A stretch of DNA of 64,000 nucleotides from an uncultured virus (IMG/VR IMGVR_UViG_3300011445_000001) (lineage: Duplodnaviria; Heunggongvirae; Uroviricota; Caudoviricetes). The notes beneath the pieces are model-generated. The model searched no databases. It was not told where the DNA came from and saw only the letters and a program-made list of their open reading frames with translations. A program made the translations under genes and the position numbers. The stretch lies in the IMG/VR virus record IMGVR_UViG_3300011445_000001; one strand, written 5' to 3'. Positions 1,847-61,800 of this stretch are shown here, piece by piece; the stretch's first letter is position 1, and every line of letters starts with the position of its first letter.

Positions 1847-1862
1847 GCAAATCCAATGCCCG
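1847..1862 (-). promoter_or_regulatory. sigma54-type -24/-12 promoter
   Basis: Minus strand GGGCAT-TGGAT-TTGC (GG-N10-GC), intergenic. Confidence 0.7.
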
Positions 1863-2039
1863 GGGGGTATGCAAGGGAAGGGGCGGGGAGGCCTCCTAAG
1901 GGTGCAAAGGGATGCAGATCTGCACTGGGTGGGGGTAGAGGGCCCATAATCTGTGGGATGCGCAGATTAGAGCGAGGAACCGTGGGAGGCGGGGGCCCGA
2001 CGACCAGAAACAAGCCGCCCAAGCCCCGGCCTGCGCCAC

Positions 2040-2327
2040 CTACTTCTTAACCGCGACCTGAACGCCCGCCTCAAAGAGGCTCTGAATCTCGGCCCAAGAG
2101 TAGACGTTCTTCTCCGGGAAGTGATTCTGGAAGGCCGTAACGACGTAGCGGGTGTCCTGCGGAGGAAGCTCCTCGTTCTCGGCCCGGAACTGCACCTTGG
2201 CCGACGATCGCGCCACCGGACTCGAGCTGTCGGTTCTGAGGGTCTCCTCGATCTGTGCGCCTAAAGCAGCGAGGCCGCTGCTGGCGTCGCTTAGCTGGCC
2301 GGGGCCGTCGATAAAATCGTCGCTCAT
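2040..2327 (-). CDS. hypothetical protein
   Basis: 95-aa ORF with upstream AGGA and GTGTA motif. Confidence 0.55.
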   Translation of the reverse strand: MSDDFIDGPGQLSDASSGLAALGAQIEETLRTDSSSPVARSSAKVQFRAENEELPPQDTRYVVTAFQNHFPEKNVYSWAEIQSLFEAGVQVAVKK

Positions 2328-2362
2328 GTTTGGTATCCTACGTTAGGGTTCGTGGTACTTCA

Positions 2363-2380
2363 AGTAGGCGTTTAGTACAC
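2363..2380 (-). promoter_or_regulatory. GTGTA-type phage promoter motif (variant)
   Basis: GTGTACTA-N6-TACT just downstream of a terminator. Confidence 0.5.
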
Positions 2381-2390
2381 CGAGGGGCCG

Positions 2391-2432
2391 AAATTAAATA
2401 AGCCGGGTCCGTTATCTGGGGAGGACCCGGCT
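2391..2432 (-). terminator. intrinsic terminator
   Basis: AGCCGGGTCC/GGACCCGGCT inverted repeat followed on the minus strand by TATTTAATTT. Confidence 0.7.
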
Positions 2433-2529
2433 CTGGTTTGACCCCGCCTATTCTAGCGGAGCAACGTCAACGCGGCGGCCAGCTCAATGGTGGCCACCAA
2501 CGCCCACCAAATCTGTCTGCGAACGCGCA

Positions 2530-2763
2530 TCATATAGGCAACCCCCTTTCTGCCAGAAGCAGCACCCCAAGGTACTTGCGGAGGCCGTCAATCTTCTGGG
2601 CGTGGATTTCAATCTCGATCTGCGTGGTGACCACGTTATCCTCGAGAAGCTCCTCCGAGGAGTTAAAGCTGGCGGCTTCTAAGGCCCGTTGGGCGTCAGC
2701 CAGCTTCCGGATGGCCGAGTCCAGATGACAGGCGGCCTTCTTCATAAGATCGCTGTTCTTCAC
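2530..2763 (-). CDS. hypothetical coiled-coil protein
   Basis: ORF with GGAGG SD upstream. Confidence 0.5.
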   Translation of the reverse strand: MKNSDLMKKAACHLDSAIRKLADAQRALEAASFNSSEELLEDNVVTTQIEIEIHAQKIDGLRKYLGVLLLAERGLPI

Positions 2764-2774
2764 GTATGGCCTCC

Positions 2775-3014
2775 TTATCCGTTGACTTTTCTAAACTTGG
2801 TCACCGCGCGCAGCATGCCACGCAGCACCCGGCCAGAAAACCGAGCCTGCAGAACCTCCTCAAGCGGCCTAGACTCACGGCCGGACCCAAGGCCCTCCTC
2901 AACCTCGCTCAACACCTCGAGGTGTCGGGCCAGATTGTCGAGGCTTTTTACGTTGTCTGTGATGGCACACCGCAGGGCGGCGCCGAGGATCGGGTCTTTC
3001 AGCTTGTTCTTCAT
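2775..3014 (-). CDS. hypothetical protein, probably leaderless
   Basis: MKNKLKDP...; ATG 14 nt downstream of the -12 C of a sigma54-type motif. Confidence 0.55.
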   Translation of the reverse strand: MKNKLKDPILGAALRCAITDNVKSLDNLARHLEVLSEVEEGLGSGRESRPLEEVLQARFSGRVLRGMLRAVTKFRKVNG

Positions 3015-3027
3015 GCCCTTGTAGATC

Positions 3028-3043
3028 GCAAGGTTGGTGCCAG
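3028..3043 (-). promoter_or_regulatory. sigma54-type -24/-12 promoter
   Basis: CTGGCAC-CAACC-TTGC; the 28 bp at 3021-3048 are identical to 27692-27719. Confidence 0.8.
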
Positions 3044-3105
3044 CCCAAAGTGGCCTTGAGGGGGTTCTTGGGTCCTGTAGGATTGGGAAGACCCCACAGA
3101 TGGGG

Positions 3106-3528
3106 CTAGGAGGCCAAGAGGCGGTCGACAACCGCGTTAAGCTTCTGTAGGTCCTCGTAGACAAGGTCCCTCTTGTCTCGGGCTAGGTCGAGGGCCACAA
3201 AGACCCTCTTGAACCGGGCGGGGCTTTTGTTGGCCGACCGAATCTTAAGCAGGATCTGGTTCTCGAAGGCGTCGACCATCTCGAGGGCCGACTTGGGCTT
3301 AATTGCCCCGGCTTCCGGCTCGCCGCGCGCCGCCTTCTCAAATTGCTCCGGGGTCCACGAACGGCGGCAGGCGTAGCAGAAGGCCTGATTCTTGTCGAGG
3401 TCCAGCTTCATCGAGGGGGTGCTGTCCGGGTGAAATGGGCAGTGCACCATCTGCGACTGGTTAACGGGTCGGGTTAGCTCTCCGATCAAATCCTGAAAGA
3501 TCTCGGTGATTAGGATGTCGGTTTTCAT
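3106..3528 (-). CDS. stand-alone CHC2 zinc-finger (primase zinc-binding domain) protein
   Basis: CPFHPDSTPSM...FCYAC motif; ATGA overlap with the DnaB stop. Confidence 0.75.
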   Translation of the reverse strand: MKTDILITEIFQDLIGELTRPVNQSQMVHCPFHPDSTPSMKLDLDKNQAFCYACRRSWTPEQFEKAARGEPEAGAIKPKSALEMVDAFENQILLKIRSANKSPARFKRVFVALDLARDKRDLVYEDLQKLNAVVDRLLAS

Positions 3529-5003
3529 TCTGGTCTGTTGAAGCCTTCTTCGTTGCCTATGAACGAGTACTGGAAGCGGGTAGTCAGGTTGAAGGGCTTT
3601 CCAGATTCGCCTTCTCGGTTCTTCACAAACCCGGCGCGCACGTAATGGTTCTTCTTGTACTCTTCGCGAAGCAACAACCACAACGCCACATCGGCGCTTT
3701 TCTCAGCCTCTGACGTCCCGGCCAGCGAACGCATGGTGTACGGCACGATATCCTCGGGCGCATGGTCCGCCCCGCGCCGAGTAGATGGCTTCATTAGCCG
3801 GTCGGCTTCGTCTCGACTGACCCTATTCAGCTGGTGTGCGGTAACCACCGCTAGCTGGTCGCGCGTACCGAAATTAAGGGCCAGCATCTTACAGGCCCGA
3901 ATACGGGACGAGTACGACTCACGGATATCTGTAGTCTTCACGTGCTCGGCGAACAGCAGCGCATAGTCCAAGAAGACCGCGTCAATCTTGTGCATACGGT
4001 TCTTTGCCACCAGATAGTCGCCGAGGTCGGGGATGGTCATCTTGCCCGGGACCTGTAGAATATCAAGCAGCCCGTACTTCCCGGAGCGGTATCCGTCACG
4101 CATGTCATCCTTCGCCATGCGCAGCGTTTCCTCCTCTTCGACCGAGAGGCTTCCGTCGCGCATCCCCCGAAACGGCACCGGGGCAACCGCACACGGCGCC
4201 CACTTCGGACGCCCATCGCGGTGGTAGGTGTGACGAGAGATCATCATCTTCTCGATTTGCTGCTTGGTCATTTCGGCCGTGGCGTAAACCACGTTCTTGC
4301 CCTGCAGCACGGCCAGATTGTAAGCCATATTGCGCAGAAGGGTGCTTTTGCCCTCGCCCGAATAGGCGCCCACGATCCAGAACTCCCCGCCACCCATACC
4401 GTTCGTTAACGCGTCGATTTGTTGAATACCGGTCGACATTCGGCCCGGGACTTCCTTGTTCGGGCCCAGTTGGGACTTCAGTGTGTGATATCGCTCCCAT
4501 AGGCGCTCGGCGTTCTCAAATAGGTTGCCGGAATTGTCGACTTGATCGCGAACATCTGCGATCTTTTGCTTTACCTCCTGTAGGTACTGCCACGCGGCGT
4601 CAATGCCACGCATCTCCACGCGCCCCACCTTATACCCCGACACAACGATCTCTTGGGCAACCTTGGTGGAGGCGAGGGTAGTTCGCTCGATCCACTTATC
4701 GCGAAGAGCTTGCAAGGCGGTCGGGAAGAGATTTAGGTCGCCGACGTAGCCACGAAGGTCGTCGATGGCAATGCGGGCAGCGAAGGCGGGTCCGGTGTTC
4801 GCCGAGGCCACGTCGGCCTCAAGGACCTCGTAGTTGGGCAGCTTCTGGTCGTCCCGATACTTGACGACGAGGCCGAACAGCATACCCTGCGCACCGTCGA
4901 ACGGATTTACGCCCTTGAAAGTCTCTTTGAACTTAAGCCAACAAGACCCCTCCGGATCGTGGGTCAGGTGGTAGAGAACCTCGTTCTCGAGATTATATGC
5001 CAT
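3525..5003 (-). CDS. dnaB: DnaB-like replicative helicase
   Basis: STGIQQID, Walker A GAYSGEGKS, TAEM, FLDY, HQLNR, EKSAD, KNREG. Confidence 0.9.
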   Translation of the reverse strand: MAYNLENEVLYHLTHDPEGSCWLKFKETFKGVNPFDGAQGMLFGLVVKYRDDQKLPNYEVLEADVASANTGPAFAARIAIDDLRGYVGDLNLFPTALQALRDKWIERTTLASTKVAQEIVVSGYKVGRVEMRGIDAAWQYLQEVKQKIADVRDQVDNSGNLFENAERLWERYHTLKSQLGPNKEVPGRMSTGIQQIDALTNGMGGGEFWIVGAYSGEGKSTLLRNMAYNLAVLQGKNVVYATAEMTKQQIEKMMISRHTYHRDGRPKWAPCAVAPVPFRGMRDGSLSVEEEETLRMAKDDMRDGYRSGKYGLLDILQVPGKMTIPDLGDYLVAKNRMHKIDAVFLDYALLFAEHVKTTDIRESYSSRIRACKMLALNFGTRDQLAVVTAHQLNRVSRDEADRLMKPSTRRGADHAPEDIVPYTMRSLAGTSEAEKSADVALWLLLREEYKKNHYVRAGFVKNREGESGKPFNLTTRFQYSFIGNEEGFNRPE

Positions 5004-5532
5004 TTAGCACCTTCGGGGCCCAATCCTTAGATAGCACCTGCGGAAGCTGGCGCAACATGGCCGGGAAGTCCGTGTCGTGTACCTGCATCTTTGGTGTGTA
5101 GTGGTTATAGAGAATTGAACCACCAATGTGGGAGATTAGGTAGAGAGGCTTGCGCTTCGCGCGGCGGTAGAGCATGATCCGCCCCATCACCATAGATATG
5201 CCCTTGGGCTTCATTTCCCCGCGCTTCGGGTCTAGGGTAATGAACAAAAGGTCTGGGCGCATGAAGTCGAAGTGCCCCTCGCGGCCAAATTCGATATCCA
5301 CAATGGGCTGGGCGTGCTCGTGTCCCACCTGAATCTCCCACCCGTTGTCGTGGTAGCGGCCATAGTTCTGCTGCGAAAAGTTGAAGATGATGGAATTAAC
5401 GATCAGATCCGTATTCGGTGACTCCCCAACAATGACAGCCTGCTCACCCGGCGTGGTGAAGTCATCAAGGTAGCCGACCTCGGGGCGCTCGCACCAGCGC
5501 TTAAATTCGTCGGACTTAATGTGCTTTTGCAT
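4993..5532 (-). CDS. possible degenerate DnaC/IstB-like helicase loader
   Basis: Directly upstream of dnaB; PDLLFITLD and YRRAKRKPLYLISH resemble IstB/DnaC; no intact Walker A. Confidence 0.35.
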   Translation of the reverse strand: MQKHIKSDEFKRWCERPEVGYLDDFTTPGEQAVIVGESPNTDLIVNSIIFNFSQQNYGRYHDNGWEIQVGHEHAQPIVDIEFGREGHFDFMRPDLLFITLDPKRGEMKPKGISMVMGRIMLYRRAKRKPLYLISHIGGSILYNHYTPKMQVHDTDFPAMLRQLPQVLSKDWAPKVLNGI

Positions 5533-7186
5533 TAGCCATGGCCTCCAACAGCCCGACGCTGAAAGTCTGGTCCATCTCGTCCACCGAATCCATAAAGTCC
5601 TTTTTCCCAAACACGGCTTCGATCGTTAGTTTCTTTTGCTTAAGGATCGTCAGCACGTGCTCATCGAAGGTATTCTCGGCCACGAAGTAGCAGACCACCA
5701 CATGCTTGAACTCCGACCCCGCGCGACGAATGCGACCTATAATCTGGCCCAACTCGCCGAACGAGAACGGCATGTCTATCAAGAAAAGGGCCCGGGCTGC
5801 TTGTAGATTTAGCCCCATGCCCCCGGCTTGGCTCATCAACATCACCCTACACGTCGGATCGGTTGAAAATCTAATTTTGTTCTGTTCCCTTTGCTCTTGG
5901 GTCTCAGACCCGGTAATACGAACCGGGTTAAACCGCTTAAGGGCCTTCTCTAGGGCGTCAATATAAGTGCGGAACTTGGAGAAGATGACGACCTTCTCGC
6001 CGTCGAACTCACCATCCAGAAGCCGCTCGATCTCGTCCAGCTTGGGGTTCTCATCCAACCCAGCACGAAGATTCGGATCAAAGAAGCGCAGCCCATTGAC
6101 AATCCTTTGCATTTGCAGCATCTTGGTTAAGATGTTTTGCGGGCGGTCCATTTTGGTAAGCCGCAGGTGGCCCATGATCTCCTGAAAGAGGGCCGTGCCC
6201 AGCAGATCCTGTTCCGTCGCGTCGTACGCCTTGCGCTGATTCGGACCGAGCTGCAGAACCACCTGCTTTTCAATCAGGGCTGGAAGTTGGACACCCAAAT
6301 CTGAGTAGTTACGACCAAGGTAATAGGGCTTGATGCGCTCGGCCAAGAGGTTGAGGTTCTTGCCTCCGGCGTAGACGTAGATCTCGCCGCCCGAGGCCGT
6401 GCGGATTGCGCGCTGCTTGGTATAGAGACCCCGAAACAGCGACACGCCCATATAGTGCTGCGTGTGTCCGGCCCGGTCGGTTCTCGCCACACCGAAGAGA
6501 GACGGTACGATTACCGAATAGATGCCGAATATCTCTATGGGGTTGTTGCTCATGGCGTAGGCCGTCAGGGCCCACGCATACTTAGCCTTTGCGGCCAGCG
6601 TACGCGCTGCCTGAAACACAGCCGTTTGATAGTTCTTGAAGACGGCCGCCTCGTCGAATATGACAATATCGAAATCCAGCGTCTCGAGCCAGCCCTTCGA
6701 AACCTTAGTAGTCGGGGTGGTCAGCTTCGCTCCCTTACGCGGGCGAGTCCTTGACGAATAGGAGGTGTCGTTGCGCATAAGGGCGTAGTTGATTATCAGA
6801 ACGTCCCGGGGCTTTAGGGATTTGCAGATTTGATACCGCTGGGTTGGCGAATACTCGGAGGTCAGCACCACCGGTCGAAAGCCCCGCAGGAATCGACGCG
6901 CCTCGGACTGCCACTGTAGCACGGCGGAATTAACGGTTACTATCAGCACCTTGGGGTTTGGCGCCTTCCGGTCGTGAACGGTAGCCACGGCAAGAAGGGA
7001 TTCGATTGTCTTTCCAGCGCCGGTGGCATCGCCAAGCAGGGCGCGGTTGTTTGCGTAGAGGAAAGCGGCGCCCGAGAACTGATATCCGTAAGGAGTGCCA
7101 ACAAAAGAGGGAGGCAGCGGAAAAGAATCCGGCAGCTTCGGGCTTGCCCTAACTGCCGGAGTTACGTCGTCATCTAACAGCATCAC
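5516..7186 (-). CDS. SNF2-family helicase
   Basis: GDATGAGKT, IFDEA, VVIFS, GGMGLNLQ, QIIGRIRRAG. Confidence 0.9.
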   Translation of the reverse strand: MMLLDDDVTPAVRASPKLPDSFPLPPSFVGTPYGYQFSGAAFLYANNRALLGDATGAGKTIESLLAVATVHDRKAPNPKVLIVTVNSAVLQWQSEARRFLRGFRPVVLTSEYSPTQRYQICKSLKPRDVLIINYALMRNDTSYSSRTRPRKGAKLTTPTTKVSKGWLETLDFDIVIFDEAAVFKNYQTAVFQAARTLAAKAKYAWALTAYAMSNNPIEIFGIYSVIVPSLFGVARTDRAGHTQHYMGVSLFRGLYTKQRAIRTASGGEIYVYAGGKNLNLLAERIKPYYLGRNYSDLGVQLPALIEKQVVLQLGPNQRKAYDATEQDLLGTALFQEIMGHLRLTKMDRPQNILTKMLQMQRIVNGLRFFDPNLRAGLDENPKLDEIERLLDGEFDGEKVVIFSKFRTYIDALEKALKRFNPVRITGSETQEQREQNKIRFSTDPTCRVMLMSQAGGMGLNLQAARALFLIDMPFSFGELGQIIGRIRRAGSEFKHVVVCYFVAENTFDEHVLTILKQKKLTIEAVFGKKDFMDSVDEMDQTFSVGLLEAMANAKAH

Positions 7187-7198
7187 CCGCTTAGTACA

Positions 7199-8332
7199 CT
7201 AAGCCGGGGTCAGCTGCCCAACCGACTTCGCGGCCGTGGTGGCCGAGGAGGTGCGGAGCCCCTTGCTGTACTTGCGCGGGACGCGGTTCAGGTGCTTGAA
7301 CTCGGGGCCGGTGCCGATGAAGCCCACCTGTACGCCGGTCACTTCCTGTACCTTCTGCACGAACTCCCGGGTGGCCGGGGTCAACAGGTGGTAGCTGCCC
7401 CTACCGCGATTCTTGTAGTCGAGGTAGTCCAGCGCCACAAGGGCGATCTGTGTCGGACGGTTGATCAGGCACGCGCGCTTGGCCTGATCGTAATCGAATC
7501 GCCCAACCCGACGAACCTTCTTCGTCACCTGCGTCATTTCGGTGAGGTCACTGGGCGCCCCGCTTTCGGCCGTCACCTGAGCCCACGTCAGCTCATCCTT
7601 GATCGGCCCGGCCTGCTGGCCGGATACACGGATTGGGAAGGCGCGCATCACCAGAATCACATCGGTGACGAGGAACGGCGACAATCCCACCTCACTGACG
7701 AAGGCGGCGGCGCCAGTGTCGCGTGAGGTGGCGCAGGGATAGGATTCACCGTGGTAGAGCGACAACCCAAATCCCTGCGTGCCCTCGATCATGATGTTCT
7801 CACCGGCATCCACGGCGTCGTTCAGGATCTTGGCCGTGTCGGCCAGCATGGACGCCCACGGCAACCCATCGACCGTGATATCCTTGGCGAGCTTGACGTC
7901 CTTGCCGCGCATGATACGACGAGCCGAGGCTGCGCCCACGCCGCTCTGCGTAGACGAAATCTGGTCGAACATACCGGCGCCGGACTCGACCTCGATGTCC
8001 TGTCGTTCAATGATCATGGCGTTCCGGTCGACGAGGATGCGGTCGGCCGTGATCGCAAACCGCTCCATCTCCGCCTTCAAGATCTCCGGATTGATGAGCG
8101 ACCCGGCGGGAAGCACCAGCTTCACCGACTGACTGACCAACCCCGACACGGAAAGCTGTCTGGCCGACTGGATGGTACCATCGGCAGAGGTCAGAGAATG
8201 TCCGGCATTCGTACCACCGCAGCGCACCGCGTACGTACAGTTGTTCTCTACAACGATCTTGGCGGCAACGCGGCCCTTGCCTTCCGACCCGAACTGTCCG
8301 CCGCTGACAACAAACACTCTACCCTTCTTCAT
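7199..8332 (-). CDS. purZ: adenylosuccinate-synthetase-family protein, PurZ0-like (2-amino-dAMP succinate synthetase candidate)
   Basis: GGQFGSEGKG (Ser where PurA has catalytic Asp), GGTNAGH, EGTQGFGL, TSRD, FPIRV (Ile where PurA has Thr), RRVG, GTGP; AAGGAG SD. Family is certain; the PurZ0 subtype is inferred. Confidence 0.7.
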   Translation of the reverse strand: MKKGRVFVVSGGQFGSEGKGRVAAKIVVENNCTYAVRCGGTNAGHSLTSADGTIQSARQLSVSGLVSQSVKLVLPAGSLINPEILKAEMERFAITADRILVDRNAMIIERQDIEVESGAGMFDQISSTQSGVGAASARRIMRGKDVKLAKDITVDGLPWASMLADTAKILNDAVDAGENIMIEGTQGFGLSLYHGESYPCATSRDTGAAAFVSEVGLSPFLVTDVILVMRAFPIRVSGQQAGPIKDELTWAQVTAESGAPSDLTEMTQVTKKVRRVGRFDYDQAKRACLINRPTQIALVALDYLDYKNRGRGSYHLLTPATREFVQKVQEVTGVQVGFIGTGPEFKHLNRVPRKYSKGLRTSSATTAAKSVGQLTPA

Positions 8333-8337
8333 TCTGC

Positions 8338-8544
8338 CTAGCTCCTTTGTGTGCCCCACTTTATCCGTAGTTCTGTGATCCTCTTCAGCTTGCTGGTACA
8401 CTCGGCGCACCAGAGAGCCTCGGGTATCACTGAGTTAATGTTCGCGCCAAAGTCGTCGATAATCACCTGCCCGCCCTCGCATTCGGTGATCAAAGTCATT
8501 AGGCCGACTAGGGCCTGAAACTGTGCCTCATTGAGCGGTGCCAT
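8338..8544 (-). CDS. hypothetical protein
   Basis: MAPLNEAQ...CAEC; preceded by GTGTATAA. Confidence 0.4.
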   Translation of the reverse strand: MAPLNEAQFQALVGLMTLITECEGGQVIIDDFGANINSVIPEALWCAECTSKLKRITELRIKWGTQRS

Positions 8545-8551
8545 CTCATGA

Positions 8552-9222: not shown

Positions 9223-9255
9223 AGGCCCTCCTTCTAGAGTCCTACCCTAAATGTC

Positions 9256-9271
9256 GCAAACACCATGCCAC
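9256..9271 (-). promoter_or_regulatory. sigma54-type -24/-12 promoter
   Basis: TGGCAT-GGTGT-TTGC in an intergenic gap. Confidence 0.7.
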
Positions 9272-9334
9272 CCGGTAAGGCCTTGAGATGCTGGTGAAGC
9301 CAAAGGTATGGGAACGACACTGCACACCTTGGAC

Positions 9335-9849: not shown

Positions 9850-9874
9850 CGTTTTGCCCTCCAGTGAAGAGGTA

Positions 9875-9914: not shown

Positions 9915-10976
9915 CTACTTGATCAAGGCCAACGCGTGGGCGTAGGCCCGCTGCTTTTCCTTCGCGCGGTTGCCGAAGAGGACCGACGCGCCCACGTCCG
10001 AGCCAAAGGACTCGCGCCAGTCGGAGACTTCGGTTACCGCATTATACGCCGCCCACACCGAGCCACGAAGGTGGGCCGGGTCAAACGCCTCGAACTGCTG
10101 TACACCGGTGGCGCGCAAAGCGCGAGCATGGCGCACGTCCCGATGCCACACTTCCTTGGCCTTCACAACCGCATTGAGGCGCGTGCCGAACGCCGACGTC
10201 ACGATGTTCTCGTCGGACGTCCCGGAGGCCCGCTCAAGAAGACGGACTTCATTGGGCATCGGCGGATCGGGCCATGCCGCCAACAGAAGCTCCTGCAGGT
10301 TGGCCTCGGTGATCTGCACACTGGCGAACCGGTCGAAGACCTCTTTCGACTGGGCAGTGATGGTACGGAACTTCGCGATCAGCTCGGTGGCGAACTGCAG
10401 CCGCTCCTCAGCCTTGTCGTTGTGCGGGATCGCCAGATTGATGGAGGCACTGCTCTGGGCGATCAAGTTCGTGTTGTTGCACACCACGCGCACCTTCGAC
10501 GAAAACGCGCGATGGGCGGTGCCGGGCTGATTCGACAGGTTGACGATGTAGTAGTCCCGCATCTCATCGCCCTTCACATCGAAGTCGGGGCCCCGTAGCG
10601 ACAGAAAGCAGAGAGCGCCTTCCTTCAGAAGCCCAGCGGTTTCGACCTTGTAGGTCCCGGAAAGCAGGTCCAGCCGCTGGGCCAGCGCCACGTAGTCGAT
10701 GTACTGCCAGTCACCCGACACCACACCAAACACCCGATACTCCGGGTCGTCGGAGGTAGGGCGGCGGATGATGGCCCTATGCCCAGTCTCCATCGCGGTG
10801 GGCTGGTTTGGTAGATGGACAACGAGCGGCTGCGACACTATCTCAATGTCGCCTGCGACCTCGCGCACTGCGTCGCTAGCCGACACCGCCGCATCCTCAG
10901 GGAAGACGCGGCCAAGCTCGTGCCACGCCGGTTTGCTTCGCGCCAGAAAGCGCTTGCCGAGAATGTCATGTGCCAT
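9915..10976 (-). CDS. DUF932 family protein
   Basis: PAWHELG, ETAGLLKEG, VRVVCNNT, GSVWAAYNAVTEVSD; AAGGAG SD before MAHDI. Confidence 0.85.
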   Translation of the reverse strand: MAHDILGKRFLARSKPAWHELGRVFPEDAAVSASDAVREVAGDIEIVSQPLVVHLPNQPTAMETGHRAIIRRPTSDDPEYRVFGVVSGDWQYIDYVALAQRLDLLSGTYKVETAGLLKEGALCFLSLRGPDFDVKGDEMRDYYIVNLSNQPGTAHRAFSSKVRVVCNNTNLIAQSSASINLAIPHNDKAEERLQFATELIAKFRTITAQSKEVFDRFASVQITEANLQELLLAAWPDPPMPNEVRLLERASGTSDENIVTSAFGTRLNAVVKAKEVWHRDVRHARALRATGVQQFEAFDPAHLRGSVWAAYNAVTEVSDWRESFGSDVGASVLFGNRAKEKQRAYAHALALIK

Positions 10977-11377: not shown

Positions 11378-11393
11378 GCAAACCCAATGCCGA
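11378..11393 (-). promoter_or_regulatory. sigma54-type -24/-12 promoter
   Basis: TCGGCAT-TGGGT-TTGC-GGTCTTTTA; downstream TTTGCGGTCTTTTA is shared with the 27276 promoter. Confidence 0.75.
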
Positions 11394-11501
11394 ATTGGTT
11401 GGGGGTCCAAGGTCCACAAGAGGGGCTAAAGGGCCAAACGGGGGCGCAACCGATTGCGAATCTAGAGCAAGGGAGGGGTAAGGGCTATGGGTGTAGGGTG
11501 G

Positions 11502-27275: not shown

Positions 27276-27291
27276 GCAAAATCAGTGCCAA
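27276..27291 (-). promoter_or_regulatory. sigma54-type -24/-12 promoter
   Basis: TTGGCAC-TGATT-TTGC-GGTCTTTTA. Confidence 0.8.
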
Positions 27292-27478: not shown

Positions 27479-27685
27479 CTAGCATCCAGTCAGATCAAGT
27501 GCTTTTCGACGACGCTCTTCCTGACGCTTTTGGGCGCGTAGGACGGCACGCCGCATGGCATACCTTAAGGCCTCTTTGATGTCCGCGTTGCGCTTGTCCA
27601 GCCAAGCGCAGAGGCGCTCGACCCGTCTTTGGTTCGCGGCCGCTACGGCTGCGCTGACCCTGAACTGGCTTCTGGTTGTCTTCAT
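27479..27685 (-). CDS. small basic protein, probably leaderless and monocistronic
   Basis: MKTTRSQF...; between a sigma54-type motif and a terminator. Confidence 0.6.
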   Translation of the reverse strand: MKTTRSQFRVSAAVAAANQRRVERLCAWLDKRNADIKEALRYAMRRAVLRAQKRQEERRRKALDLTGC

Positions 27686-27698: not shown

Positions 27699-27714
27699 GC
27701 AAGGTTGGTGCCAG
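27699..27714 (-). promoter_or_regulatory. sigma54-type -24/-12 promoter
   Basis: CTGGCAC-CAACC-TTGC, identical to the 3028 copy. Confidence 0.8.
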
Positions 27715-27792
27715 CCCAAGGTCTGCGAAAAGGCCTTGGAAGGCCACGCCGCTGTGCAGGTAGCTGCACAATATAGAGCAGATCCCATCACC

Positions 27793-54962: not shown

Positions 54963-55162
54963 GTCGTCTCCTCAACTTTGATGGTTACTAGGCGCGGCAT
55001 CAATTCGCCGCCATATCTGGTATAGTCGCGGCCACCGTCAACGAAGGACTTGCCGCACGGACAGTGGCGAAAATCGTGCCGATGCCTCGACCATACGATC
55101 TCATGGCACTCTCGGCAGATGATGCCGGTGAACTCGGTCGGGATCACAGACTGGTAGGCCAT
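54959..55162 (-). CDS. small Zn-binding conserved phage protein
   Basis: CREC...SRHRHDF..CPCG...VDGG.DY.R. Confidence 0.7.
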   Translation of the reverse strand: MAYQSVIPTEFTGIICRECHEIVWSRHRHDFRHCPCGKSFVDGGRDYTRYGGELMPRLVTIKVEETT

Positions 55163-55341
55163 GGCGAGACGCGCTTCGAATCGCGACCCTTCTTCTGGCG
55201 CTTCTGGAGGATCTTTATGGCCGCTTTAGCGTGCTTGACGACCGATCCGGGCAGGGCGTCGCGGTTGAGCTTGTCGAGGGCTATGATCTGTGATAGCAGG
55301 CGCAGGGCCCATGCCTCGTGATTGTGGCTAACGTGAGGCAT
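55144..55341 (-). CDS. hypothetical protein
   Basis: Packed ORF. Confidence 0.4.
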   Translation of the reverse strand: MPHVSHNHEAWALRLLSQIIALDKLNRDALPGSVVKHAKAAIKILQKRQKKGRDSKRVSPWPTSL

Positions 55342-55436
55342 TTAGGGCCTTCTTCCGATTCGGGCCTTGATTATGGGGGCGGCCACAGCGCACACCGCCA
55401 CTCCAGCGACTACGACTTCAGTGCAGACGAAGCACA

Positions 55437-55805
55437 TTAGCGGTTATCTCCATCACCATGAAGGGTGTCCTTCTTGGCGCGTTCGTCGAGCTTCTTGATG
55501 TTGGCGGCGGCGACGTCCGATAGCTTGGCGCCTATTTCGTCGCAAGTGGCCGAGAGATACCACAAGGCGTCTCCCAACTCCTTGAGAATGGCCTTGCGGT
55601 TCTCCTCGGTAATCTCCCCGCCTTGGTCGCGCGCGATCTTCTTGACCTTACCAGCAACCTCGCCAGCCTCGTTGGTTAGACCGAGGACCGTATACTCAAG
55701 AGCCCCAAGCGGATCGGCATGCTTACAGTGGCAGTAGTCGCAAAACCGATGGCGCGGGTAGATCTTGAACCGGCGGGCTTTCTGCTGGTAGTCGTTGAAA
55801 TTCAC
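55437..55805 (-). CDS. MazG-like NTP pyrophosphohydrolase
   Basis: MNFNDYQ, LGLTNEAGEV, KELGDALWY, NIKKL..R, GDGDNR. Confidence 0.88.
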   Translation of the reverse strand: MNFNDYQQKARRFKIYPRHRFCDYCHCKHADPLGALEYTVLGLTNEAGEVAGKVKKIARDQGGEITEENRKAILKELGDALWYLSATCDEIGAKLSDVAAANIKKLDERAKKDTLHGDGDNR

Positions 55806-56194
55806 TGCGCGACTACGATTGGCAGGTTACAGTTCTCGCCGAGCGGGTACCCCGGGGTCAGGTCGAGTGTCAGATTGGTGCCCGGCGCCAGCCACACGCC
55901 AACGAGGCAAGGGTCGGTGGGGTGGTGTCGCATATTCACCACTTGTGGCTGATCACAGGGCGAAAGCTCGGTGGTCGTGAAATACTGAATCTGGTGGGCC
56001 GTATTGCCAACCAACCGCCAATTGCATGGTTCTGCCTCAGGAGGTGGTGCGGCCGAGGTGGTCGGCTCGGTCATCGACCTGTGGTGGTCTACAGGGCTCA
56101 CGGAGTTCGAACAGCCGGTCGGTCCGGCGCTGATAAGCAGCAAGAGGACCAAAATCAGCACAAACAGGGCGATCATCTTCACGTATTTGGACAT
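55802..56194 (-). CDS. putative lipoprotein
   Basis: Signal peptide followed by TG-CSN. Confidence 0.55.
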   Translation of the reverse strand: MSKYVKMIALFVLILVLLLLISAGPTGCSNSVSPVDHHRSMTEPTTSAAPPPEAEPCNWRLVGNTAHQIQYFTTTELSPCDQPQVVNMRHHPTDPCLVGVWLAPGTNLTLDLTPGYPLGENCNLPIVVAQ

Positions 56195-56242
56195 TAGTTC
56201 TTTCTCCTTGTTGGCACACGTACACCCCTCTGGGCCAAACGC

Positions 56243-56545
56243 TTAACTGGGCGGCTTCTGGACGGCCCCAAGGGCCCGAATCAGGGCAAGCTTCCGCTGC
56301 AAGCGCCACTTCTTGGCCCGTCGTCGGGCCTTTTCCTTAGCAACAGCCCCTTGCCGGTAGATGCGGGCATTCTCCGCTCTGCACTCTAAGCATACCGAAT
56401 TGCGCTGATCCTTATAGCGGGCGTCCATGCCGAAGGCCGAGAGGGGCTTTCGGGTCCGGCAATGTGGGCATGGCTTAGATTGCCCCTCCTGCTGCTGGTC
56501 CAAAAGCCTGCGCATCTCGAGATTAATTCTCTGAGATTGGTTCAT
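56243..56545 (-). CDS. Zn-ribbon basic protein
   Basis: CPHC...KPLSAF...CLEC; similar finger to 8749-9222. Confidence 0.55.
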   Translation of the reverse strand: MNQSQRINLEMRRLLDQQQEGQSKPCPHCRTRKPLSAFGMDARYKDQRNSVCLECRAENARIYRQGAVAKEKARRRAKKWRLQRKLALIRALGAVQKPPS

Positions 56546-56559
56546 GGCCGGGAATTCCC

Positions 56560-56578
56560 GTGCGTGTGGTAGCGCGAC
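56560..56578 (-). repeat. 19-bp dispersed repeat, copy 2
   Basis: Identical to 24864-24882. Confidence 0.75.
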
Positions 56579-56583
56579 TCGGT

Positions 56584-57300
56584 TCACAAGCCCTCGTCCG
56601 GCTTATCAACAATCAGCCGCCGTGGGCGTTTAGTCCCCGGGTGCCAAGAGCGCTGCTTGGACCCGGCGTGATCGATGAGACTGGTGGTGGTCGAGGCGCA
56701 CCAGAACCCCTCATGGTGGATGCGGCGCATGACGGCACCCTCGACGTCGCCTATAAGTCTATCGGTTGGGAAGGGATGGCCGAATCGCATAGCATCATCG
56801 AACCGCATCAGAAGGCAGCACCCCGGCACGAAGGGTCGAACCCCGCCCTCGACCACCTGAAGCGGGCCCGCATCAAACACCCGGGCCTCCTCTTGCGAGG
56901 AGTGCCTAAATCCCGATAGAGCTCTTAAACCGGTCGGGTAGAATCGCTCGAGAGTGGCGACCATGGTGGACTCCCACTCATGCGAGAAGGTGAGATCGTC
57001 ATCGCACAGCAAGACGTAATCGGGCGGACAACCAGCAGGAACCACATAGCAAGCCTCAGTCAGGAAAGATAGGCCCACGTTCCACGCGTAGCCCTTACCG
57101 TAGTTGTCATCGAGGAGGATGGCGGTCAACGGGAGGGTCTCAAGGTACTTTCGGGCGGTGGAGGTTCGAACCCCCTGCTCGACCACCACCAGCGGACCCG
57201 CAAACTCCGAATCAAAGAGGGAGGTCAGAGTAGCCCGAAGAAGGGCCGCCCGCCCCATGCTGGCCATTACAACGCCGACGGTACCGTCTTTAGGCGGCAT
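56584..57300 (-). CDS. GT2 (GT-A) glycosyltransferase, paralog of 27793-28485
   Basis: NYGKGYAWNVGL, LCDDD, LRALSGFRH, PGCCLL, IDHAG. Confidence 0.8.
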   Translation of the reverse strand: MPPKDGTVGVVMASMGRAALLRATLTSLFDSEFAGPLVVVEQGVRTSTARKYLETLPLTAILLDDNYGKGYAWNVGLSFLTEACYVVPAGCPPDYVLLCDDDLTFSHEWESTMVATLERFYPTGLRALSGFRHSSQEEARVFDAGPLQVVEGGVRPFVPGCCLLMRFDDAMRFGHPFPTDRLIGDVEGAVMRRIHHEGFWCASTTTSLIDHAGSKQRSWHPGTKRPRRLIVDKPDEGL

Positions 57301-57360
57301 CTCGGTGCCCTTTCAGACCGGCGCGCGCGACGTCGCGGCTTTTTGGCCGCCCCTTGTGGC

Positions 57361-57383
57361 AACAAAAGGCGCCCCCGGGCGCC
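57361..57383 (-). terminator. intrinsic terminator after endolysin
   Basis: GGCGCCC/GGGCGCC stem plus TTTTGTT on the minus strand. Confidence 0.55.
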
Positions 57384-57386
57384 GCC

Positions 57387-57950
57387 TTAGCCAATTTGAA
57401 TTCTCTTCAGCCAGCCTCGGGCGAAGGCCTCTTGGGTTGGGTTGGCCCGCATGATATCGAGGTAGAACGCGCCGCGCAGCACGACAACCACCTTCTCGAT
57501 CAGCTCGTAGTCCTCTTTCCGCTCAAGGAGCTGGGCGCGGGTAACAGGTCCAAAGAGCCCGTCCACCTTCAGGTCGGGGTAGAGGGTCTGGTTACGGTTC
57601 AACACATTCAGGGCCTCCTGCAAGAACTTAATGGCCCTTCCGTTGCCCATATTAACCGCGATATCGAACAACTCGTCGGCAAGCGGCTGGTGGTCTATCT
57701 CATCGAGACTCATCAAATCCCAGATCACCTTGTAGAAGGACTCAACATGAAAGCGCAAGTCGATTCCTACTTGGATCCAATCAACATCACCCTTCGTTGC
57801 CGCCCGGTCAAGGTACGCCCACCCCGACCACTCCGGAAAGTGAACGCGCGAGATGCCCTTGTAGGTTTCGCCGCCCTTGTCGTTGGGGTGGTTCGAGTAG
57901 CCGCCCTCGTACTGAAGCGTCTTGGTCAGTGCAACCGAGAACATCACCAT
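57387..57950 (-). CDS. endolysin, glycoside hydrolase family 108 with PG-binding domain
   Basis: EGGYSNHPNDKGGETYKGI, FDIAVNMG, VDGLFGPVT, FARGWLKR. Confidence 0.92.
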   Translation of the reverse strand: MVMFSVALTKTLQYEGGYSNHPNDKGGETYKGISRVHFPEWSGWAYLDRAATKGDVDWIQVGIDLRFHVESFYKVIWDLMSLDEIDHQPLADELFDIAVNMGNGRAIKFLQEALNVLNRNQTLYPDLKVDGLFGPVTRAQLLERKEDYELIEKVVVVLRGAFYLDIMRANPTQEAFARGWLKRIQIG

Positions 57951-57962
57951 GGTTAAGTCCTT

Positions 57963-58433
57963 TCAGCCCACAAGCGTGACGGAGGCCACCCCATTCGGGA
58001 TGCGATTTTGGAGCTTCTCGTACGCCGCTTGTAGAGACGGGTCCGGGTAGGTCCAGCCGTCACGGTAATACACCTTGACGATTCCGGCTTGTATCAGCTC
58101 CTTCGTGCAGCCAAAGCAGGGGCGCATCGTACAGAACATCTCGCCACCCTCGACGGCAATACCAAACCGAGCCGCAGATAGGAGGGCGTTCTGCTCGGCG
58201 TGCACACAAACACAAATGTCGTAATTCGTACCGGATAGGTACTTCACGCTATCTGCGCACCGATCGCAACCACCGTCAAGGCAGTTGGTCATGTTCGAAG
58301 GTGTGCCATTGTATCCAGTCGAGACCACGCGATTGCCAACCACGATAACGGCCCCGACGCGGCGGCCCAGACAATTAGCCTTGGTCCCAACCGCCACCGC
58401 AATCCCCATGAAGTACAAGTCACGATTCTGCAT
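57963..58433 (-). CDS. dCMP deaminase family
   Basis: VGAVIV, TGYNG, HAEQNA, PCFGC. Confidence 0.9.
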   Translation of the reverse strand: MQNRDLYFMGIAVAVGTKANCLGRRVGAVIVVGNRVVSTGYNGTPSNMTNCLDGGCDRCADSVKYLSGTNYDICVCVHAEQNALLSAARFGIAVEGGEMFCTMRPCFGCTKELIQAGIVKVYYRDGWTYPDPSLQAAYEKLQNRIPNGVASVTLVG

Positions 58434-58704
58434 CGCGGCCCTTCTGCTCTTCCTTAGCGACCATCAGCTTCATCTCCTCGGCCCTATCAAATACCATCAG
58501 CATCTTGTGGCAATTAGAGCATTCGGCGTTCGGCTCAAGGGCAATCGGACTTGGGCAAACCAAAATCGCCACAAAATCGCACGCAATGCAGTGGGCCTTG
58601 CCCACCAGCCAAAGCGGCTCGCCGGATTCTAACATCCGCTCGGCCATACGCTTGGCCCATTCTTCGTCTAACTCATCGGCCACGAGACAGATCCTCAATC
58701 TCAT
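58420..58704 (-). CDS. hypothetical Zn-ribbon protein
   Basis: CIAC...CSNC. Confidence 0.5.
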   Translation of the reverse strand: MRLRICLVADELDEEWAKRMAERMLESGEPLWLVGKAHCIACDFVAILVCPSPIALEPNAECSNCHKMLMVFDRAEEMKLMVAKEEQKGRDAES

Positions 58705-59983
58705 GTAGCCGCTCGAGAGTGCGTCGAGACTCCCACTGCCCGGGGGTGCTGTAGTACAGACTTTCTAAGTCGATGTTGTGCTTTGCACACACCTGTTCAG
58801 CAAGCCTCTTAATGCGAGCCCGCCAAATAGCCACAGCCCCGCGCGAGGATTGAAATCTCGCAGCAATCTCCTTCGATTCGTACCCCAGATAGAACAGGGC
58901 GTTCACCGCCGTCAAGCTTTTGATGGTGCCTCTATGGTCTCGCCATGGCTTGGTTTGCTCTAGCTCTGCCTGCAGGAGCGTAAGGAACCGCTCAAGGGGC
59001 GAAGACACCACATCACCATTATCGCAAAGCTTACTGACCTCGGGGTGCAGGAACTCCTCGCCGTCGTTGCCTGTGAAGAACAGGGGCTCGGCTTGTGACA
59101 GAACATTGCGGACCGGGCGCTCCCTCTCGTCGCGACAAGCCCGACAGACCCTACAGTCGACGCACACCTTCCGGTTCTTGCACTGCTTACACAGAGTGAA
59201 CTGGTAAGAGTCGTCACACGTCAAACACGCCGGAGCCTTGGCGGGCTTATGGCCCACGCAATCGGGGCAGTGATTGCACGCCTTACATACTCGACACATG
59301 GAATTGGGCCGTGCCGGGCTACAAGACTTACATTTCTCACAGAAGCCGGGCGTCAGACACCCCCCATGGATGGCGCACCTCGAACATTCCTTGGTGCGGC
59401 CGTTATCGCGAAGATGGTTGAGGCAGACGGTGCGGATGACTCCAAACACGTGGGTGGTGAAAGAAGCGCCCACCGGACTGGGTAAAGCGCATATACACTC
59501 CTCGATAACGCGGAACTTGATCATACGAACGTAGACGTTCTGCTCTAAATCGTCTATTAGGCTTGAGTCCCGCACCCCGAAGTTCTTGATGGCAGCACGA
59601 ACCCGATCCTTCCACGTCCGATAGAAGGTGTCCATGTCCATGGCGTGATCACACTTACACCGCTTACGGGCATCGCTTTTCTTGACAAACTGCGGCGTCT
59701 TCTCGCCGTGCTTGGGCGTCGGGGGCGTAGAGCCGAGGAAGGTGGCCGTATCGGGGAAGCGCCCCCGATGCGCCTTGCTGATCTTGCCAACACCATAAAC
59801 AAACGCCGTCCGAACTTCATCGGTATCCAACATCCGGAATGTGTAGGACTCTCGTTCTTCTGCTGGGCAATCCTTCAACACGCCCTCAAGGTCGGCCGAG
59901 AGGTAAAGTGAGAAGGCCTCTCCGTTGACAATGATGTAATCCTCGGGGCTGGTCTGTAGCTTAGAGATTAGGGACTTTTTCAT
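58673..59983 (-). CDS. ECF-like sigma70-family factor with Cys-rich insertion
   Basis: Region 2 DDLEQNVYVRM...SFTTHVFGVIRTVCLNHLR; region 4 LGYESKEIAARFQSSRGAV...RAR; 19-Cys insert between them. Confidence 0.7.
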   Translation of the reverse strand: MKKSLISKLQTSPEDYIIVNGEAFSLYLSADLEGVLKDCPAEERESYTFRMLDTDEVRTAFVYGVGKISKAHRGRFPDTATFLGSTPPTPKHGEKTPQFVKKSDARKRCKCDHAMDMDTFYRTWKDRVRAAIKNFGVRDSSLIDDLEQNVYVRMIKFRVIEECICALPSPVGASFTTHVFGVIRTVCLNHLRDNGRTKECSRCAIHGGCLTPGFCEKCKSCSPARPNSMCRVCKACNHCPDCVGHKPAKAPACLTCDDSYQFTLCKQCKNRKVCVDCRVCRACRDERERPVRNVLSQAEPLFFTGNDGEEFLHPEVSKLCDNGDVVSSPLERFLTLLQAELEQTKPWRDHRGTIKSLTAVNALFYLGYESKEIAARFQSSRGAVAIWRARIKRLAEQVCAKHNIDLESLYYSTPGQWESRRTLERLHEIEDLSRGR

Positions 59984-60443
59984 TCAACTCCTGAAGAACT
60001 TCGAAGGCGTGGTACTTCTTCCACAACTCCGAGTCATCGTAGAAGGGATAGCGCCGAGCCATTCGCAGGAAGACGGCATCGTGCGGATTGATTAGGTCGA
60101 ACCCACGGTGCAGGTGAATTAACTCCTCCAACAGCGTCGAGTAGACGACCTCGGTTGGTACCATCGGTAGAAATAGGGCAAGGTTGATGCGCAGCACCGG
60201 AGGTAAGTCATAAGCCGCCCGCCCGGGCAAGTGGATCTGCCTCCGCTTAACCTCGGCCCAACACAGTTCCTTATCTCCCGGCTTAGAGGCGAACAGATCG
60301 ACCACGAACTCCGGCGTTGGGTGGTTGCAGACCTCCACGAAGATAGCACAAGCATCGGAGATCAGCCCAACAGAACCCGGGCGGATCGCATGCAAGACAT
60401 GCCTGTGCCGCAGAAACATCCGCAGCCCGTCATCACCGGGCAT
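59961..60443 (-). CDS. SprT-like zincin-fold protein with EELIH in place of HExxH
   Basis: LRINL...STLLEELIHL...PHDAVF. Confidence 0.5.
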   Translation of the reverse strand: MPGDDGLRMFLRHRHVLHAIRPGSVGLISDACAIFVEVCNHPTPEFVVDLFASKPGDKELCWAEVKRRQIHLPGRAAYDLPPVLRINLALFLPMVPTEVVYSTLLEELIHLHRGFDLINPHDAVFLRMARRYPFYDDSELWKKYHAFEVLQELNEKVPNL

Positions 60444-60444
60444 A

Positions 60445-60891
60445 CTAGCCCTCAATGTCATTTGGGGCATCAGCCTCGTTGTACTGCTCCGGCTTGGGCG
60501 CTGAAGCGTCAGACATGGAGTTCTGTATTTCCTCGATCTCCTTGTTGATGTGGGCACGCTGCTCAGCATCAACCCCCTCACTGGCCAAGACCTCCTGCAG
60601 GAATTTAACGCGATCCCGTTTGATCTCGTCTCGGATCTCGATGATATTGGGGATGGTCGCACCGAGGGCCGCAGCCAAGTGCTTGAACATGTAGACAAAC
60701 TCCAAGTGCGCCACTTGAAGATGCGCGATCTGCTGCTGGGTCACGTGCTCCATATGCGCCAGCTGGTTCATGCCCGTCGCCATCTTCGGCGTGATGGCCC
60801 ATACCTGCTCAATCATGGAGGGGATGGGAGGAAGAATGGAGGTGGGGGCGGGAGCCGCTTGCTGTCCCGGGATTTGAATTTTAGTGCTCAC
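60445..60891 (-). CDS. hypothetical protein
   Basis: Packed ORF, helical. Confidence 0.55.
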   Translation of the reverse strand: MSTKIQIPGQQAAPAPTSILPPIPSMIEQVWAITPKMATGMNQLAHMEHVTQQQIAHLQVAHLEFVYMFKHLAAALGATIPNIIEIRDEIKRDRVKFLQEVLASEGVDAEQRAHINKEIEEIQNSMSDASAPKPEQYNEADAPNDIEG

Positions 60892-61522
60892 GTGGGGTTT
60901 CTCGTTTCTTGATGGTGGTTGGTCCGTCGTTCTTCTTTTCCACTTGATATACCGTGTTAGCGAAGGCCAGCAACTCCTCCGAATGCGTAATGAGCAAGAT
61001 GGTAATTCCCAGCTTCTCGGTCAGGAAGTGCAGGAAGTCGCCCACTTTCTCGAGATGCTCCCGGCCAACTTCGGCGAAGGCCTCATCAAGCACCAAGAAC
61101 CGCTGCATGTCCTTCCGCTTCTGAAGGATTAACACAAGAATGGTCAGCACGGAGATGATGTCCACGTAGCCGCCACCGCGACTGTCCATGATGTCGGTCT
61201 TAGTGTCCTTGCCCAGCCGCATGTAAGCATATACAGACCGAACCTTGGTTTCCATATCGATCGAGAAGGTATCTTGCTCGTCGAAAATCACGCGGAGGCC
61301 GTGGTTAACGATATTCTCCATCACCTGCTTAGATGACATCTCACAGATCTCGGCCACTTTCTTCAAAAGCTGGGTTGCCTCTCCGGCTGTTGCCTCGAGG
61401 GCGGACAGCCTCTCTAGAGTGGCTCCTAGCGTGGCGACTTCCGACAACAAGGCCGCCCGGCGCTTCTGTAGCATGCCGAAGGTGGTTTGAAGGGCCACCA
61501 ACCGCTCTAGGTGGGTGGGCAT
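60881..61522 (-). CDS. SbcC/Rad50-like ABC ATPase, C-terminal half
   Basis: Coiled coil, SRGGG signature, LVLDE Walker B, LITH. Confidence 0.85.
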   Translation of the reverse strand: MPTHLERLVALQTTFGMLQKRRAALLSEVATLGATLERLSALEATAGEATQLLKKVAEICEMSSKQVMENIVNHGLRVIFDEQDTFSIDMETKVRSVYAYMRLGKDTKTDIMDSRGGGYVDIISVLTILVLILQKRKDMQRFLVLDEAFAEVGREHLEKVGDFLHFLTEKLGITILLITHSEELLAFANTVYQVEKKNDGPTTIKKRETPREH

Positions 61523-61756
61523 TTACTTAATGGCGCCTAACTCGGATTCGGCCTTGGAGATCTGGGCCTCGAACTCGGTGATGCGCCTCTCAACTTCGGC
61601 CCGCAGAGCGTCCAAGTCCTGCTCGGTGTCGATGCCCAAAGCCTTCAGCTCGACTAGGGTTTCATCCAGCTGCTTCTGAGCGAGGTCCGCTTCCGCCTTA
61701 GCGGCGGCCCGCTTTTCCTTCAGCGAATCTAACCGGGCTAGTAAGTCTTGAGCCAT
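61523..61756 (-). CDS. small coiled-coil protein
   Basis: Heptad pattern, AAGGAG SD. Confidence 0.65.
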   Translation of the reverse strand: MAQDLLARLDSLKEKRAAAKAEADLAQKQLDETLVELKALGIDTEQDLDALRAEVERRITEFEAQISKAESELGAIK

Positions 61757-61784
61757 GTTGGTATCTCCTTAAGGGCAAACGAGG

Positions 61785-61800
61785 GCAAACCGCGTGCCCG
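61785..61800 (-). promoter_or_regulatory. possible sigma54-type -24/-12 promoter
   Basis: GGGCAC-GCGGT-TTGC in a short intergenic gap. Confidence 0.45.

Follow-up and report, generated by a model that had tools for sequence, protein, structure and literature searches.

Phage early transcription is usually ascribed to host sigma-70 or to a phage polymerase, and the question raised by the uncultured tailed virus IMGVR_UViG_3300011445_000001 (IMG/VR) is whether some of its genes are read from sigma-54-type promoters and, if so, by whose proteins. We analyzed a window of 64,000 nucleotides (nt) from its 71,142-bp genome, such that ~7.1 kb lie outside the sequence examined. An initial annotation had pointed to -24/-12 boxes of the form GGCAY-N5-TTGC in seven minus-strand gaps, at positions 1847, 3028, 9256, 11378, 27276, 27699 and, as a weaker copy, 61785 (here P1 to P7). 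We find what looks like a known promoter system placed in an unusual context. The boxes are real and conserved, and there is more to them than the annotation described: the upstream palindrome, the leaderless geometry, the phage sigma-70-like gene and the probable GTGTA promoters reported below are all absent from that annotation. With a probability of roughly 0.6, host sigma-54 and a host activator fire accessory genes from six of the seven boxes; the gating of infection by a host signal is put forward here as a hypothesis.

Seven -24/-12 boxes and their conservation

The pattern GGCAY-N5-TTGC has exactly seven matches in the window, all on the minus strand at the annotated positions and with exact spacing, and no further exact match on either strand. 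The raw count is modest, given that shuffled sequences average 1.47 matches and 1 of 100 shuffles reaches seven. As to placement, a hand-drawn gene model leaves 4.1% of the window (2,631 nt) non-coding, and all seven boxes fall within this fraction and on the coding strand, compared with 0.02 expected and a maximum of 2 in 2,000 first-order Markov runs, and no exact copy is in a coding or antisense position. Among the 16 spacer lengths tried (0–15), length 5 gave seven intergenic matches, length 15 gave one and all others gave none. Each box lies in sense just upstream of a gene start, as had been described, with start codons 14–44 nt after the -12 C. The fixed GG-N10-GC spacing and the consensus are found at 7/7 window boxes and at both boxes of a distant relative, G003, and the motif agrees with the RpoN consensus TGGCAC-N5-7-TTGCT as given in excerpts of a published account (PMC12316311), the first T of TGGCAC being retained at four of the seven window boxes. 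The stretches reported as shared by P2 and P6 (28 bp) and by P4 and P5 (14 bp) are both identical without exception, and the DUF932 protein, the PurZ-like synthetase and the Cys-rich small proteins are found downstream as claimed. From sequence, we hold it likely that the boxes serve as sigma-54-type promoters of one kind or another. One near-match on the plus strand, at 11823, was set aside, as it probably lies inside a small open reading frame (ORF) on the other strand.

The boxes, their upstream elements (offsets from the first G of the box) and the genes that they head are:

1847..1860, minus strand: P1 -24/-12 box; start codon 14 nt after the -12 C, near-leaderless; orthologous promoter before the G003 ortholog
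1903..1916, no strand: P1 palindrome, perfect TGCA-N6-TGCA at -56..-43; candidate activator site
1947..1969, no strand: inverted repeat TAATCTG-N9-CAGATTA upstream of P1; possible second site
1561..1833, minus strand: 90-amino-acid CxWC..CxxC protein, first gene after P1; closest homolog starts with the same Met-Glu-Arg
3028..3041, minus strand: P2 box; ATG 14 nt after the C; no recognizable palindrome (p 0.34)
2775..3014, minus strand: 79-amino-acid protein of no known family, first after P2
9256..9269, minus strand: P3 box; 33-nt gap to the ATG with Shine-Dalgarno-like GGAGG; heads the run from 9222 to purZ
9311..9324, no strand: P3 degenerate palindrome, left half TGCA only, at -55..-42 (p 0.03)
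7199..8332, minus strand: PurZ-like adenylosuccinate synthetase homolog; Ser at the PurA Asp position; 216 bits against an NCBIfam PurZ cut-off of 300
11378..11391, minus strand: P4 box; heads a 92-amino-acid gene and DUF932
11445..11458, no strand: P4 palindrome CGCA-N6-TGCG at -67..-54, one helical turn beyond those of P1 and P6 (p 0.007)
9915..10976, minus strand: DUF932 protein
27276..27289, minus strand: P5 box; heads a 73-amino-acid gene with Shine-Dalgarno-like GAGGAG; partial upstream element (p 0.008)
27699..27712, minus strand: P6 box; ATG 14 nt after the C
27755..27768, no strand: P6 palindrome, perfect TGCA-N6-TGCA at -56..-43, arms extending to 7 bp
27479..27685, minus strand: 68-amino-acid basic protein, first after P6
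61785..61798, minus strand: P7 box, atypical; no downstream block (p 0.29) and no palindrome (p 0.11)

The copy annotated as weaker, P7, fits the -24/-12 consensus and lacks both the downstream block and the upstream element of the family. Its first G lies 4 nt past the preceding stop codon, and it heads five tightly packed genes of which the last is the phage sigma gene; its role as promoter of this sigma operon is doubtful.

Conservation could be followed in G003 (42.5 kb, ~60% complete), whose G+C content of 41% is 16 points below that of this phage. Identities to G003 are 72% for SNF2, 59% for DnaB, 66% for the primase finger and 73% for purZ, and its virion genes differ, being of contractile-tail type as read from its ORFs. 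Both of its intergenic boxes read TTGGCACG-N4-ATGCT; one stands before the ortholog of the P1 gene, the other after the primase zinc-finger region, in the place of P2, and one of the two keeps GGCA at +11..+14. Across the nine aligned boxes of the window and G003, GGCA..TGC is invariant and the spacer is free. Upstream of the P1 ortholog, G003 also carries on the other strand an exact 11-mer that overlaps the gene-proximal arm of the 1947..1969 repeat. No intergenic box of this kind precedes purZ in G003, and the annotated link to purZ is not seen there. The annotated sigma-54 reading itself is supported and strengthened by the motif, its conservation and an enhancer-like palindrome. Scans of viral contigs with the sigma, DUF932, SbcC-like and zinc-finger genes returned only the phage's own population or G003, and a metagenome scan for relatives gave 35 loci, all at no more than 35% identity.

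The 28-bp identity of P2 and P6, and the likeness across the family on both sides of the box, could also suggest that the boxes are mostly relics of copied intergenic cassettes, kept for recombination between accessory modules and with little promoter role. The identity is confined, however, to functional positions, and the spacer differs among copies and between phages 16 G+C points apart, so that we regard this as the most improbable of the readings weighed here.

The P1-type promoter of G003 lies upstream of a same-strand run that reaches an extracytoplasmic function (ECF) sigma, an AAA ATPase and a DNA polymerase ~4–6 kb on. At this locus (L045, 1691-3950, minus strand), the ECF-type sigma gene is followed by a 572-amino-acid CDC48-like AAA ATPase, of a large uncharacterized family, and then by DNA polymerase A. 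The ATPase was considered as an activator and rejected, being a classic CDC48-like AAA protein without GAFTGA.

The upstream palindrome and the downstream block

The palindrome TGCA-N6-TGCA occurs twice in the window, both times at -56, before P1 and P6, and only twice in G003, whose two boxes have it at -68 and -67 relative to their first G; all copies (2/2 and 2/2) are thus upstream of a box, at 42–54 nt, in two registers one helical turn apart. Two copies per 64 kb are ordinary (23 of 100 shuffles); their placement is unusual, YGCA-N6-TGCR having a chance of ~0.001 per random 17-nt window. In leave-one-out scoring of the upstream element, with offsets picked after inspection of the data, seven of eight family sites gave p values of 0.0003–0.03, P2 being the eighth and P7 standing outside the family. 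Overall, the palindrome is full at three of the seven window boxes and at both G003 boxes, partial at two and absent at P2 and P7. It looks like a candidate activator (enhancer) site.

Among viral loci, the extended family pattern was matched at 19, namely 3 of this phage and 16 unrelated single matches that appear chance-like, and the palindrome-plus-box pattern at 99 (62 distinct sites), with two matches per locus only in G003. These searches gave no sign that this exact layout is common in phages. Six loci from viral records of 92–95 kb (L191, L193, L208, L211, L235, L240) have one common palindrome-plus-box site ~140–190 nt before a gene.

In bacteria, a palindrome 41–54 nt before a sigma-54 box was detected at at least 120 GTDB loci. 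Among the matches listed, a GAFTGA-type gene is present at 22 of 72 loci longer than 4 kb, and 8/8 of the GAFTGA genes scanned encode Sigma54_activat proteins; no GAFTGA-type gene was found in 737 kb of other loci, a lenient control that is mostly viral. Downstream genes at the listed loci include phosphate butyryltransferase, leucine dehydrogenase, aldehyde dehydrogenase and transporters. In the 23 listed matches with an activator gene, the gaps are 41–46 nt (16), 47–50 nt (0) and 51–54 nt (7), and the five phage palindromes, at 41, 41, 52, 52 and 53 on this scale, fall in the same two registers. A second, tandem site accompanies 41 of the 120 matches listed, most commonly at an offset of -19 (11/41).

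Multiple copies of the layout were sought in ten genomes, which had one or two each except for a deltaproteobacterial metagenome-assembled genome (MAG) with five, and no host was identified thereby. In this MAG (G013; L295, L299, L301, L302, L303), TCCGGA-rich repeats, TGCA-N6-TGCA, a stretch resembling an integration host factor (IHF) site and a sigma-54 box make up an element together with a conserved GC-rich sequence that comes after the box and shows no clear ORF; the element could represent a non-coding RNA driven by sigma-54 or one end of a mobile element. Acidobacteriaceae MAGs (L072, L081, L123, L287, L288, L293) have PEP-CTERM-like genes behind a sigma-54 box, with TGCA-N6-TGCA 52–54 nt before the GG and a conserved ~100-nt leader following; the motif is unlike the TTTACA-ending motif 1 of Proteobacteria.

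On the other side of the box, six boxes form one family with a conserved downstream block that ends in an A at +14. The continuation G-R-T-Y-T...GCA, with its final A 14 nt after the -12 C, is present at five of the seven boxes (leave-one-out p 0.0001 each), is weaker at P3 (p 0.07) and does not fit at P7. At P1, P2 and P6, the A at +14 is the A of the start codon, and the P1 start is supported by the closest homolog of its gene, which begins at the same residue; at P3, P4, P5 and P7, the start codon is 29–44 nt off and is preceded by a Shine-Dalgarno-like word. Given that sigma-54 starts ~12 nt after the C, leaders of only 0–3 nt would result at P1, P2 and P6, implying messages that are leaderless or near-leaderless, which would add a compact sigma-54 promoter design. 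The conserved GGCA and the three ATGs at +14 are compatible with a start 11–14 nt after the -12 C. RNA contigs are of low depth: 20 pieces came from four runs, 19 of them below position 11378, and the runs were picked using positions 1-10,000, which makes them unfit for starts or levels.

The same geometry bears on the idea that the boxes bind host sigma-54 holoenzyme or a repressor without firing, acting as operators, roadblocks or a sink by which accessory genes are kept off until some other promoter takes over. According to the excerpted text of PMC12316311, the closed complex formed by sigma-54 does nothing without its activator, and P2 has no palindrome; both points would suit such a role. 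However, 7/7 boxes are oriented with the genes and none against them; the three start codons exactly 14 nt after the C are too close for a ribosome site to fit in between, as would be expected if transcription began there; the seven gaps contain no sigma-70 consensus promoter to block; and neither a repressor nor an integrase occurs among the 102 ORFs of the window. We therefore consider non-firing boxes quite improbable.

Host and phage candidates for the reader

Neither RpoN nor a sigma-54 activator was found among the 102 window ORFs (PHROGs/Pfam) or by family searches of the whole window, of G003 and of G002, the nearest virus record, which spans only 21.5-61.5 kb of the window. A hidden Markov model for activators likewise found none in 1,988 six-frame segments, so that the search for such genes recommended with the annotation came back empty for 64 of the 71.1 kb, a result that fits host dependence. 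Sigma-70 consensus matches were not in excess in 1-14,000 (5 versus 4.2 expected), 23,000-30,000 (1 versus 4.2) or 53,000-64,000 (1 versus 2.5).

The strongest rival, which we hold to be unlikely, is that the phage supplies its own activator, sigma-54-like factor or polymerase, encoded in the remaining 7.1 kb or delivered as a virion protein, with no host gating. Besides the DNA outside the window, sequence that the family shares in addition to the host consensus (GRTYT..GGCA on the downstream side, with GGCC/CCCG 9 nt past the palindrome) would suit a reader of this kind. Nothing activator- or RpoN-like is present, however, in the 64 kb or in the 42.5 kb of G003, a stretch that includes both its DNA polymerase and its sigma region, and the AAA ATPase encoded there is the CDC48-like protein without GAFTGA. 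Moreover, given that the window lacks a DNA polymerase gene, part of the remaining 7.1 kb is probably taken up by one. A scan with the right-end gene returned no contig extending into this part of the genome.

The phage does encode a sigma-70-like factor, in which region 2 and the C-terminal part are separated by a long Cys-rich insert; most of the cysteines are kept in its three homologs. A separate promoter-like motif accompanies it:

58673..59983, minus strand: phage sigma-70-like factor with region 2, 436 amino acids; three homologs at 38-46% identity
49204..49211, minus strand: GTGTA(A/C)AA box, as an example; also at 23232, 25502, 36036, 45261, 51404 and 53602
2373-2380 and 7192-7199, minus strand: GTGTACTA variants of the GTGTA box

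GTGTA(A/C)AA has eight matches compared with 1.75 expected (0/100 shuffles reach eight), all on the minus strand and seven at gene boundaries, with several before terminase and virion genes. Including variants, the class is found at ~13 gene boundaries between 2373 and 53609, and in this phage as in G003, variants stand ahead of the helicase gene and of the 2327 gene. These boxes are probably promoters of the phage sigma. Conversely, the -24/-12 motif itself might be read by this factor and merely resemble a sigma-54 box: the factor is unusual, with its insert and weak family matches, so that its specificity is not predictable. We judge this very improbable, given that the GTGTA motif, similar to the AATGTA box of phiEco32 in excerpts of PMC12276001, already fits the factor, and that both the geometry (a start 11–14 nt after the GC and a GG 12 nt ahead of the GC) and the upstream palindrome are as in sigma-54 promoters.

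In the favored reading, that of host sigma-54 with a host activator, host RNA polymerase with host RpoN would occupy six of the seven boxes, and a host AAA+ activator with a Fis-type helix-turn-helix would bind YGCA-N6-TGCR 42 or 53–54 nt upstream of the GG. With palindrome centers near -75 or -85, this activator would touch the closed complex and open it using ATP. Transcription would start at the conserved GGCA block, 11–14 nt after the -12 C, giving leaderless or near-leaderless mRNA at three cassettes and short Shine-Dalgarno leaders at the other three, and would drive small accessory genes, DUF932 and the run to purZ, presumably early in infection. The phage sigma-70-like factor would then read GTGTA boxes before helicase, terminase and virion genes. 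Sigma-54 promoters give no transcripts until opened by an ATP-driven activator, so that by retaining box and activator site together a phage would tie part of its programme to host physiology.

Several points weigh against this reading. Promoter conservation is seen in a single relative, which is itself only ~60% complete, and the ~7.1 kb outside the window may hold an activator or a sigma-54-like factor. Only three of the six family boxes have a full palindrome, and P2 lacks one although its core is nearly identical to that of P6. The palindromes of the window are mostly single, in comparison with the often tandem activator sites of bacteria, and no mismatch-free IHF consensus lies between palindrome and box in the window gaps. 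The bacterial comparison set is dominated by related Bacillaceae, and the palindrome, occurring in unrelated regulons, names no activator. Lastly, the fixed GGCA at +11..+14 is, we presume, more conserved than expected of host sigma-54 promoters, and this strong conservation could reflect recent copying or a phage-specific reader.

A bolder version holds that there is no sigma-70 early programme at all, and that the first genes and, via P7, the phage sigma fire only when one host sigma-54 activator is on; we would doubt this rather than accept it. If true, the phage would read a metabolic or stress signal of its host through a borrowed enhancer and stay silent in a sediment cell until that signal comes, in a signal-gated lytic cascade running from host activator and host RpoN to phage sigma and virion genes with neither repressor nor integrase. 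Lysis would thereby be timed without lysogeny, which is relevant to slow-growing subsurface hosts. The palindrome makes the idea assayable without the host and may help to find it.

Phage setting and known systems

The window has a G+C content of 57%, and all modeled genes are on the minus strand. It carries a tailed-phage gene set (terminase, tail tube, tape measure, SNF2 and DnaB helicases; PHROGs/Pfam), together with the PurZ-like synthetase, a glycosyltransferase block, a GH108 endolysin and the sigma-70-like factor, and none of its 102 ORFs matched an integrase, a repressor or a DNA polymerase in the same databases. Rfam and tRNA scans of the sequence gave zero matches. Matching DNA came from groundwater and freshwater-sediment runs. 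We found no close cultured phage, terminase identity being only 21–26% among the 20 matches listed, and purZ is likewise without a close cultured match. We take the lysis genes to indicate a diderm host, not Bacillus; Atlas taxa were uninformative as a host pointer.

Besides the PurZ-like gene at 7199-8332, the window encodes a dATP/dGTP diphosphohydrolase, MazG and dCMP deaminase (25509-26312, 55437-55805, 57963-58433), and no HD-domain dATPase was seen in it; Z substitution of the phage DNA is plausible from this gene content. We dropped the thought that Z-substituted DNA can be opened only with the help of ATP: the hosts of purZ phages include Arthrobacter and Microbacterium, and Actinomycetota lack RpoN, according to the excerpts of PMC12316311, which counts against such a necessity. 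An eight-gene block at 14209-22340 (minus strand) comprises four glycosyltransferase-like genes, two methyltransferases, a DegT aminotransferase and an adenosine deaminase, with two paralogous GT2-like genes apart from it (27793-28485, 56584-57300); in a purZ phage, it may modify DNA or a surface with sugars in addition to Z. Further accessory genes encode a peptide deformylase (11891-12562) and an S49 peptidase whose N-terminus is likely of lipoprotein type (13332-14309), both on the minus strand. At 35500-35580, a short direct repeat of ~22 nt (ATACAAGCTCTTTGGCTTGTAT-type, itself a hairpin) lies in the gap between two virion genes.

In the largely open-access literature searched for phage use of sigma-54, Pseudomonas phage YuA is the one precedent found, with one sigma-54-like promoter confirmed by sequencing according to the text of PMC10914365. 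The three -24/-12 promoters marked in its GenBank record all lie in the virion gene region, and neither GGCAY-N5-WTGC nor TGCA-N6-TGCA has a match in its genome (0 each). In contrast to these loose sites, the present phage has six copies close to consensus, placed ahead of accessory genes and accompanied by a palindrome, and 0/7 boxes head virion genes.

The second promoter class recalls phiEco32, in which a phage sigma-70-like factor goes with a TGTA-core box before replication and virion genes, the gp36 sigma reading AATGTA at middle and late promoters (excerpts of PMC12276001). The early genes of phiEco32 use host sigma-70, whereas the other class here is sigma-54-type; the sigma of this phage also differs from gp36 in its 436 amino acids and Cys-rich insert. 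Palindromes or motifs upstream of -24/-12 boxes are also described, in the source texts, for the PexR-dependent katB/ahpC promoters of Myxococcus xanthus (CACCG-n6-CGGTG; PMC12754779) and for PrsR-type PEP-CTERM promoters (motif 1, ~63 nt upstream; PMC1569441). Those systems have other half-sites (CACCG, TTTACA), are chromosomal, and have a known or adjacent regulator.

The closest layout is that of the Bacillus bkd (ptb/bcd) promoter, a -24/-12 box with TGCA-N6-TGCA upstream. Judging from the scan, BkdR presumably binds this palindrome. At three Bacillaceae ptb loci (L109, L116, L143), the palindrome matches one of those in G003 letter for letter, and BkdR activates the ptb promoter in B. thuringiensis, as stated in excerpts of PMC4428206. 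In many Bacillota, among the matches listed, TGCA-N6-TGCA lies 41–45 or 53 nt upstream, beside a gene for a PAS-AAA-HTH (helix-turn-helix) activator. Compared with the BkdR regulon, in which tandem sites ~19 nt apart accompany an adjacent PAS-PAS activator gene, neither feature is present at the phage sites, which have no adjacent activator gene, mostly single palindromes and, at P1, P2 and P6, three predicted leaderless or near-leaderless starts.

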